NCBI GenBank assembly: GCA_963827655.1
Contig: CAWHCF010000033.1
Span: forward strand, 1 to 48,644
Length of the DNA stretch: 48,644 nucleotides
Reading direction: 5' to 3'
Origin: an uncultured Acidobacteriota bacterium
Lineage (GTDB): Bacteria; Acidobacteriota; UBA6911
Shown here: positions 32,851 through 33,788 of the stretch, in pieces
Numbering within the stretch: position 1 is the first letter of the stretch
Layout of the letters: each line of letters begins with the position of its first letter
Made by a program: the position numbers and the translations under genes
Notes under the pieces: generated by a model
The model's input: the letters and a program-made list of their open reading frames with translations, nothing else
Told to the model about the DNA's origin: nothing
Database searches by the model: none

Positions 32851-33192
32851 ATGAAACGACCGGCCTGGATTGCGCCCTTGGCGGCGATCGTCAGTTTTCT
32901 GGCGGCAACTACCTGCTGTCTACCGGTGGGCGTGTTTCTGGCGGCCGCCGGTTTGGCAGGCGTGGCGCCTCTGCTCGGCCCCGCGCGCCCCTACCTTCTG
33001 GGATTGTCCGTCGCGATGCTGGCACTCGGCTTCTGGCAAGTTCATGGACGCACGGCGTGCCCGGTTCGGGGCAGGCTCGCCAGCGTGATCCTGCTCTGGA
33101 CGGCCGCCGGGATGGTTGTGGTCCTGTTCTTGTTTCCTCAGTTTATTGCCGGACTTCTGGCCGACTTATTTGCGATAGGGTCTTCATCATGA
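32851..33192 (+). CDS. MerT-like heavy-metal transport membrane protein (113 aa)
   Basis: Three hydrophobic helices, adjacent Cys pair in the first (AATTCCLP), RPYLLG motif before the second, loop Cys (TACP); GGAG RBS; stop overlaps the next start (ATGA). Confidence 0.75.
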   Translation: MKRPAWIAPLAAIVSFLAATTCCLPVGVFLAAAGLAGVAPLLGPARPYLLGLSVAMLALGFWQVHGRTACPVRGRLASVILLWTAAGMVVVLFLFPQFIAGLLADLFAIGSSS

Positions 33193-33788
33193 GAAGAATG
33201 CTGTGGGTGATGACGGCGATCATAATCGCTCTGTCTCTGGGAGCGGCTTTCCTGGTTTACGCGCCCAGGGAGGTTCCGCCGGGCCAGCCGCCGCTCGTCT
33301 ACCTGAATCCGCAGAACTTCGATGATCTCCGCAAGCAGTTCAACGACGCGGCCGCCAGCCCCCGCGTTCTGCTGATGCTGTCGCCGACCTGAACCGTCTG
33401 CCTGCAGGGGGCCTCTGCAGTTCAATCCGAACTCTCCGCCGTCGCCGGCCGAGACCTGCGCGTGTTTGTGGTATGGGAGCCGGTTATCTTCACCGACTGG
33501 TACGCTCCGCGCTCCGGTGTTCTGGCGCGCGTGTCAGACTCAAGGGCAACGCAATTCTGGGACAGGAACCTTTTGCTTTCGGAAGCAATCAAGCAGTCGC
33601 TGGAGCGCAGGGGAAGCGAACACGTGACAAGAATGCGCGAAGAGGGTCGAGGGGTGGTGTGGGACATCGTGGCGCTCTTTCCTCGAGGTGTGCGCTGGGA
33701 AACAGATTTCCCGGAGTCGCTCTTCTTTGGCGCTCCGGTGGTCGATGCGATCGAGGAGTTCCGCCGCCGGATCCAGGAGATCGGATGA
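33189..33788 (+). CDS. Putative selenoprotein, membrane-anchored thioredoxin-like fold with U-T-V-C motif (TGA 33390-33392)
   Basis: N-terminal TM helix, ...RVLLMLSPT-TGA-TVCLQGA...LRVFVVWEP...QFWD... reads through in frame into the 33462-33788 ORF; 199 aa with Sec at residue 68. Confidence 0.82.
33402..33420 (+). promoter_or_regulatory. Bacterial SECIS-like hairpin
   Basis: CTGCAGGGGGCCTCTGCAG folds into a 7-8 bp stem with a G-first loop, starting 9 nt after the TGA. Confidence 0.55.

Follow-up and report, generated by a model that had tools for sequence, protein, structure and literature searches.

A MerT-like membrane protein gene paired with a predicted UxxC thioredoxin-fold selenoprotein gene in an uncultured Acidobacteriota bacterium

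What does a frame broken by an internal TGA encode when it starts inside the stop codon of a gene for a MerT-like membrane protein? This question is raised by two overlapping open reading frames (ORFs) in an uncultured Acidobacteriota bacterium of the lineage UBA6911 (GenBank assembly GCA_963827655.1, contig CAWHCF010000033.1), of which positions 1 to 48,644 of the forward strand were analysed; this whole stretch is called the window. The upstream frame, ORF A, encodes the membrane protein. The downstream frame, ORF B, very probably encodes a selenoprotein in which selenocysteine (Sec) would stand for the first cysteine of a CxxC motif. The original prediction, made from the sequence alone, had proposed that this protein may take the place of MerP, the periplasmic partner of MerT, in the handling of soft metals. 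The features of the locus are the following:

32851..33192, plus strand: ORF A, gene of a MerT-like membrane protein of 113 amino acids, stop codon TGA at 33190-33192
33189..33788, plus strand: ORF B, read-through gene of a predicted UxxC thioredoxin-fold protein of 199 amino acids, true stop TGA at 33786-33788
33192..33260, plus strand: predicted N-terminal membrane anchor of ORF B, residues 2-24 (AlphaFold2 helix 2-24, hydropathy)
33285..33785, plus strand: predicted thioredoxin-fold domain of ORF B, residues 33-199, of TlpA/DsbE/CcmG/ResA type (AlphaFold2, structural alignment, Foldseek)
33390..33401, plus strand: predicted active-site motif U68-T-V-C71 of ORF B, with TGA at 33390-33392 (Sec) and TGC at 33399-33401 (Cys)
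33402..33420, plus strand: hairpin of the selenocysteine insertion sequence (SECIS) type, 9 nt after the UGA, with stem 33402-33409 / 33413-33420 and a G-rich apex

The TGA codon of ORF B and the hairpin behind it

A GGAG lies 9 bases 5' of the ORF A ATG, and the ORF A stop and the ORF B ATG (33189-33191) share the tetranucleotide ATGA (33189-33192). In ORF A, TGC-TGT at 32914-32919 encodes Cys22-Cys23 within the first of three hydrophobic blocks detected by hydropathy (residues 8-40, 50-61 and 76-107, approximately), and the basic loop between the second and the third block (62-75) carries Cys70 (33058-33060). The frame of ORF B reads MRRMLWVMTAIIIALSLGAAFLVYAP...RVLLMLSPT-TGA(33390-33392)-TVC and comprises 199 codons with one internal TGA, remaining open to 33786-33788. 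The predicted start-stop overlap, the Cys-Cys pair and the TGA in a frame open to 33788 were all confirmed on the sequence.

A word-indexed protein search with the read-through ORF B product returned 42 homologues, three of which extend across the TGA. In P0003 this position is Cys (PTCPVC), while P0004 and P0005 show W, which is most simply explained as a TGA probably read under table 4; P0004 also has a MerT-like part, joined via another W to the part homologous to ORF B (hereafter B). The remaining 39 cover 36-64% of the read-through protein, and an alignment of 17 of the 42 showed that the short homologues start just after the TGA. These partial entries bear out the proposal that standard annotation splits the gene, and gene callers systematically cut the ORF B family in two.

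The codon itself was followed in two sets of genomes. In a sample of 401 genomes of the phylum, 69 had a match to ORF B, and the 93 match rows contained exactly one in-frame TGA in 71 cases and none in 22. In 30 loci fetched from this sample, the codon aligned to residue 68 is TGA in 25 and TGT or TGC in five, always in the context S-P-T/S-[U/C]-x-x-C. Three of the 25 TGA loci come from genomes flagged as unpublished (G152, G024 and G049); when these and the window's own locus are left out, 21 TGA and five Cys codons are counted among 26 loci. The second set was obtained by a pattern scan of one genome per species over 185,579 species, which gave 80 close relatives in named records, with TGA at this codon in 78 and Cys in two.

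Furthermore, a profile search against 1.84 billion representatives found 2707 proteins at E ≤ 0.001, whose carriers are mostly soil Acidobacteriota according to the record titles. Among the best 150 of these 2707, the motif [ST]P[ST]-C-x-x-C is present in 95, the Sec position is occupied by W in three, S in three and G in one, and 48 lack the motif, about 27 of them (counted by eye) beginning right after the Sec position. Metagenome assemblies also cover the codon: 33390-33392 is bridged by contigs from one RNA run and from three DNA runs of soil or rhizosphere, and no variant at these positions was found among the differences listed (40 of 76).

The hairpin behind the TGA has a stem core of CUGCAG/CUGCAG (33402-33407 and 33415-33420), which can grow to 8 pairs enclosing a loop of 3 nt. 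When the window sequence was folded alone, the hairpin was not the minimum-energy fold, and the 61-nt stretch behaved like its shuffles (z -0.06). Since folding of the lone sequence is uninformative, the hairpin was judged by comparison across relatives. The 45 nt that start with the TGA were aligned without gaps for 22 relatives, unpublished genomes being excluded. In this alignment, columns 13-20 and 24-31 are paired in 88.6% of the cells, versus 40-55% when the 3' partner is slid by 1-3 columns. Six of the eight pairs show compensatory changes on both sides, and the covariation score was unmatched by any of 500 column shuffles. The same comparison with 76 distinct sequences from named genomes gave 96.9% versus 36-63%, with all eight pairs kept in 58 sequences. 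The two Cys forms among the named relatives keep four and five of the 8 pairs, and the helix is likewise degenerate in five further Cys loci, although the encoded residues are similar. The apex is G-rich and lies about 18-20 nt from the U of the UGA, and both its position and its composition fit the rules for bacterial SECIS elements. An Rfam scan gave no matching model for the hairpin. The predicted stem-loop is thus borne out by comparison and not by single-sequence folding.

Cys or TGA at residue 68, conservation on both sides of it and the covarying hairpin agree with the predicted reading of the TGA as Sec. From this comparative evidence, ORF B is very probably a real selenoprotein and a member of an uncatalogued family. 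The genome of the organism itself, an assembly of 8.18 Mb in 53 contigs and 90% complete, contains selB (380 bits), selD (384 bits) and tRNA-Sec (74 bits), and ARAGORN reported a tRNA-SeC with the anticodon tca. selA was also found above its cut-off (398.5 bits) but is frameshifted, and for this reason the expression of ORF B with Sec in its own genome is given a slightly lower probability than membership in a selenoprotein family. The presence of selA was rejected as a discriminator, as it is above the cut-off in five of five other TGA-bearing genomes tested and in five of five Cys-only genomes alike.

The two proteins, their pairing and the operon in relatives

ORF B was matched by neither a Pfam nor an NCBIfam model at E ≤ 1, and the best E of a PDB profile search was 0.089. 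An atlas look-up with a natural Cys homologue led to clusters without a name and to no others. Its AlphaFold2 model, obtained from a 34-row alignment with a predicted local distance difference test score (pLDDT) of 96.3 and a predicted template modelling score (pTM) of 0.90, consists of a helix at residues 2-24 followed by the beta-alpha-beta pattern of thioredoxins, with U68-x-x-C71 at the start of helix 69-84. Foldseek gave weak matches to thioredoxin-like proteins (best E 2.4e-4, template modelling scores 0.38-0.59). Exhaustive structural alignment (VIA-align) reached Z values of 10-11.9 with root-mean-square deviations of 2.4-3.2 A over 119-129 residues, and the structural matches are DsbE, CcmG, ResA, TlpA-type proteins and the C-terminal domain of DipZ. 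According to the model, ORF B is a membrane-anchored thioredoxin fold of the TlpA/CcmG/ResA type. The basic N-terminus (MRR) and the lone helix point, by the positive-inside rule, to a type II anchor that leaves the N-terminus inside and the domain outside. The HMA model PF00403 did not match ORF B, and HMA is found only as an extra domain in some relatives.

MerT has three membrane helices and a vicinal Cys pair in the first of them. Both hallmarks are present in ORF A, which has three hydrophobic blocks and whose C22 and C23 are kept in 24 of 24 family members, together with P25, R46, P47, G60, F61, C70, L82, W83 and P96. In the family alignment, all 24 members match MerTP_fusion (NF033556) at E ≤ 0.01, with a best E of 1.2e-10; merT_RC607 (NF033560) is matched by 19, PRK13751 MerT by five, the MerT/CopZ selenoprotein model NF045683 weakly by four, and PF02411 at E ≤ 0.1 by three. 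Since these matches run through the whole family, ORF A is taken, on its sequence, as a remote relative of MerT that lies below every curated cut-off. The predicted likeness of the upstream gene to MerT thus holds as kinship, without membership on PF02411 or on the NCBIfam MerT models.

Two other MerT-like signals were noted. A match in another genome (G143) that seemed to contain one TGA was discarded, this TGA being merely its stop codon. At the end of the window, a weak PF02411 signal (48196-48315, plus strand, 15.9 bits, E 0.067) falls in an ORF (48136-48579) with no Pfam match at E ≤ 0.001.

Regarding the pairing, an ORF of the A family lies directly upstream of B and on the same strand in 72 of the 80 named relatives, and in 11 of those 72 the two share one frame that runs as far as the TGA. 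Among the eight relatives without it, the sequence available upstream is too short in at least two (L133 and L187). Of 44 A-family matches in the phylum sample, 13 lie directly upstream of a B match, and all of the seven best are among these (one of the 13 pairs comes from an unpublished genome). Database proteins also join the two parts. P0068, P0073 and P0077 are A-B fusions that end at LSPT, P0088 consists of a MerT-like part and B, P0191 joins a PF02411 MerT domain (35.5 bits, cut-off 32.9) to a B domain, and P0137 is a triple fusion with DF, MerT-like and B parts in this order in one chain. The conservation of the pair that had been predicted is thus found in most relatives, with fusion in 11, and it is likely that B is functionally coupled to the MerT-like A.

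In the relatives, the full gene order is MerR, DF, A, B. A MerR-family gene is present upstream of A in 37 of the 80, and a small DF gene (NCBIfam NF049942, 'DF family (seleno)protein') in 31. The MerR-type regulators keep three Cys (37/37, 37/37 and 36/37) with a spacing of 35 and 9-11 residues, which is the pattern of Hg(II)-binding MerR. One of these regulators scored 145.3 bits on TIGR02051 MerR, versus a cut-off of 150.85, and for it the MerR, ZntR, CadR and CueR models are within a few tens of bits of each other. DF is a thioredoxin-like small protein with two conserved Cys (31/31 and 30/31). B-domain fusions among 59 long representatives involve HMA in six cases, DF in five (one above the cut-off) and GDCCVxC in one, and P0137 is the representative that fuses B to both DF and a MerT-like domain. 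P0080, P0227 and P0137 are large chains in which one or two B domains occur with HMA, DF and Cys-rich linkers.

The complete operon, with TGA in B, was found in Acidobacteriaceae bacterium KBS 96 (L148, KB906767.1, 3825-5453). MerR (3825..4265), DF (4255..4566) and A (4559..4939) abut or overlap there, B follows from about 4944, and the gene after B is on the other strand. No conserved gene was found downstream of B in the 80 loci, where the recurrent clusters are unrelated (CheA-like, GntR/aminotransferase and MacB).

Metal transfer or electron transfer

We give a little better than an even chance to the reading that A and B act together as a thiol/selenol relay whose cargo is a thiophilic metal of the mercury type; in this reading, we infer the topology, the binding of the metal, its identity and the direction of its transfer. 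Aided by the hairpin at 33402-33420, recoding of the UGA at 33390 would yield an active site of Sec68-x-x-Cys71, and B would be co-transcribed and, through the ATGA, translationally coupled with A. The selenolate/thiolate pair of B, in MerP's gene position, would take up the metal on the outer face and exchange it with the Cys-Cys pair of A, which in turn would move it across the membrane to its cytoplasmic loop Cys. Where relatives have the full operon, the metal would then pass to the cytoplasmic thioredoxin-like DF, under the control of a three-Cys MerR-type sensor and with no MerA reductase in the unit.

Several results weigh against this relay. Concerning ORF A, no Pfam match at E ≤ 1 was obtained, the genome search gave no PF02411 match at the locus, and the scores on MerTP_fusion (25.9 bits, cut-off 180) and merT_RC607 (24.9 bits, cut-off 130) are low. 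Moreover, its sole invariant loop Cys is C70, whereas the MerT of Tn501 and Tn21 has a second Cys pair on the cytoplasmic loop. Concerning ORF B, the nearest solved folds are thiol:disulfide reductases; the proposal that it stands in MerP's place is right as to gene position, but the protein has a thioredoxin fold and not the HMA fold of MerP.

The window carries the A-B core alone, no MerR or HMA gene being found in it by domain scan, and no DF gene was found in the organism's genome at its 90% completeness. A metal context is found in relatives (MerR-type regulators, HMA fusions and the MerT fusion P0191) and is missing at the locus itself. MerA was not above its cut-off in the same genome (best MerA-like score 387 versus 454) and was above it in one of five other A-B genomes, and since MerA is mostly missing, the fate of an imported metal would be left unexplained. 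In addition, four of five genomes with a close B and no adjacent A have no A-family gene at all (completeness 90-100%), so B does not need A, and the neighbourhoods of these lone B genes have nothing in common. Lastly, the organism's selA (C23:243631-244996, minus strand) is in four pieces, in frames 1, 3, 1 and 2, with three frameshifts within 1.35 kb when compared with the intact selA of a relative; if this selA is dead, ORF B would be a truncated product in its own genome.

An electron relay is a possible, though less probable, explanation of the pair. The MerT-like protein would act like the membrane domain of DsbD, CcdA or ScsB and connect a cytoplasmic thioredoxin-like donor (DF) with the outer Sec-thioredoxin B, whose task would be to reduce or repair metal-damaged periplasmic Cys or to keep the Cys pair of the transporter reduced. 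In this respect, the A-B operon would parallel DsbD and ScsABCD. The nearest folds of B come from TlpA, DsbE, CcmG, ResA and the C-terminal domain of DipZ (at the Z values given above), and in DipZ such a domain is attached to a membrane thiol transporter. The order of P0137, with a cytoplasmic thioredoxin-like part, a membrane Cys domain and an outer thioredoxin-like part, agrees with electron transfer too, and the fold and the triple fusion fit either relay equally well. Furthermore, UxxC selenoproteins are typically redox catalysts according to Table 1 of a 2026 inventory (PMC13188914), and many genomes carry B by itself, as would be expected of a periplasmic oxidoreductase with a general role; these lone genes and the reductase-like fold pull toward an electron relay. 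On the other hand, the membrane partner is related to MerT and not to DsbD or CcdA, fusions connect B domains with metal-binding HMA domains, the regulators belong to the metal-sensing MerR type with three Cys, and two vicinal Cys are unusual as a redox couple. It is the homology to MerT, the HMA fusions and the three-Cys regulators that favour the transfer of metal over that of electrons, and B may serve in either role, as a metal binder or as a redox partner.

A reductase-free, selenium-based metal relay working in another manner seems doubtful. Here, the MerR sensor would switch on a chain of two-ligand sites formed by the cytoplasmic DF, the Cys-Cys pair of A and the outer Sec-Cys pair, and a mercury-type metal would follow a gradient of affinity along it, with the outer selenolate as the strongest site. 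The metal could thus be moved or parked outward, in the reverse of Mer uptake, or be buffered unreduced at the membrane, and the A-B core of the window would be the minimal form of such a system.

It is improbable that B is a selenoprotein with a general extracytoplasmic thiol-oxidoreductase role, to which the adjacent MerT-like gene has no mechanistic meaning. The four genomes with a close B and no A-family gene, the mutually unrelated neighbourhoods of unpaired B genes and a window without MerR, DF and HMA would agree with it, but not the A genes directly upstream in 72 of 80 relatives, the 11 in-frame fusions, the pairing of all seven best A matches of the phylum sample or the ATGA overlap of the locus.

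Least probable of all is that the TGA is a stop in this genome, where the broken selA (no second copy was found) would leave only a 67-residue anchored peptide in a decaying locus without MerR and DF and flanked by dispersed repeats, because the frame of B is intact for 131 codons past the TGA, keeps every residue that is invariant in the family and is accompanied by a flawless hairpin of 8 pairs, because selB, selD and tRNA-Sec are intact, as is a second TGA-containing gene (DsbA-like), and because the four selA pieces are well conserved (34-62% identity each to the selA of the relative). Two pyridine-nucleotide oxidoreductase genes of the assembly are split likewise (C17:74025-75339 and C43:118619-119594), and a MacB-like gene of the window looks broken too, which suggests that the selA frameshifts may be assembly indels; this origin is plausible, and a selA pseudogene is possible.

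Neighbouring genes, known systems and significance

Short dispersed repeats flank the A-B pair at about 32662-32740 and 33791-33825, with 37 and 50 further matches in the same genome, and they sit within 457 bp 5' of ORF A and 40 bp 3' of ORF B. They draw very many soil metagenome contigs, with high depth and diverging ends. A 90-amino-acid ORF at 32582-32854, whose stop overlaps the ORF A ATG, was taken as spurious, having no family match and lying on a dispersed repeat; it was ruled out as a DF protein even when read through. A promoter and terminator scan over 31.5-34.3 kb gave nothing useful.

Upstream of the pair, a second hidden selenoprotein gene, DsbA/FrnE-like, was observed at 31758-32393 on the plus strand. 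Its TGA (31800-31802) lies in the motif FTDYV-U-PWCY, no signal peptide is present, the part after the TGA matches PF01323 with 78.9 bits, and a 9-pair hairpin follows the UGA. This gene belongs to the catalogued family 'DsbA-like form 1, UxxC'. It was rejected as a part of the A-B module, being absent from 12 of 12 and from 80 of 80 related loci. Directly 3' of B there are three large ORFs on the plus strand (34264-35484, 35330-37738 and 37757-39973) with no Pfam match at E ≤ 1e-4, the first two overlapping by about 150 bases. Elsewhere in the window, 1804-3180 (plus strand) encodes a 459-amino-acid protein with an N-terminal TIR_2 domain, possibly related to defence, and the overlapping MacB_PCD/FtsX ORFs 12101-12721 and 12630-14522 (plus strand) look like one frameshift-broken gene of a MacB-type permease.

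Among known systems, the pair resembles MerT-MerP of Tn21 and Tn501 and the MerTP fusions (NF033556) in having a gene for a three-helix Cys-Cys protein followed by that of a probably exported partner with two thiols or thiolates, in the natural fusions of both and, in relatives, in the three-Cys MerR-type regulator upstream. It differs in the partner, which is predicted to be a thioredoxin fold with UxxC, whereas MerP is HMA ferredoxin-like with CxxC. ORF A also falls well short of the MerT cut-offs, with a single Cys in its loop, and, unlike in the mer operon, most A-B carriers lack MerA and the window lacks MerR. NF045683 (MerT/CopZ fusion-like heavy metal transport selenoprotein) and the MerT selenoproteins with a CU motif likewise tie selenium to a MerT-type transporter, but their Sec is in the MerT or HMA part, while in the A-B family it would be in a separate or fused thioredoxin domain and A has only Cys.

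The likeness to TlpA, ResA, CcmG (DsbE) and the C-terminal domain of DipZ consists of the predicted fold, a membrane anchor at the N-terminus and a CxxC-type motif placed where helix 1 begins. ORF B nevertheless lacks membership in their sequence families (Thioredoxin_8, Redoxin, AhpC-TSA and similar, none at E ≤ 1), its motif is SPT-U/C-x-x-C, and its partner is MerT-like instead of CcdA or DsbD.

In the literature, the Haft preprint (10.1101/2022.07.06.499078) mentions a few selenoproteins of the MerT family that carry a CU motif, and a 2022 review (PMC9312934) lists a MerT selenoprotein and the DsbA-like UxxC family. The 2026 inventory (PMC13188914) comprises 119 selenoprotein families, each with a domain identifier, among them a 'Hypothetical protein DF' (NF049942) whose entry carries no operon context. 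The UxxC families of its Table 1 include Trx, Grx, Prx-like, thiol:disulfide interchange protein, redoxin family, thiol-disulfide isomerase-like cd02966 and others. As in those families, Sec would replace the first Cys of CxxC in a thioredoxin fold and Cys homologues exist, but no Pfam, TIGR or NF model that the table names was hit by ORF B, a comparison outside its two cd02966 entries, and the family was not seen among the 119 as far as the comparison with Table 1 reached. A literature search for DF-family selenoproteins, GDCCVxC or thioredoxin-like selenoproteins of Acidobacteria with SECIS gave nothing.

The family would connect selenium with both a MerT-type transporter and MerR regulators that sense metals, in soil bacteria that are abundant and for the most part without MerA. 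With the cultured strain KBS 96 carrying the complete operon, the question is directly testable, and it may bear on the handling of mercury-like metals in soils and on the antagonism between selenium and mercury.

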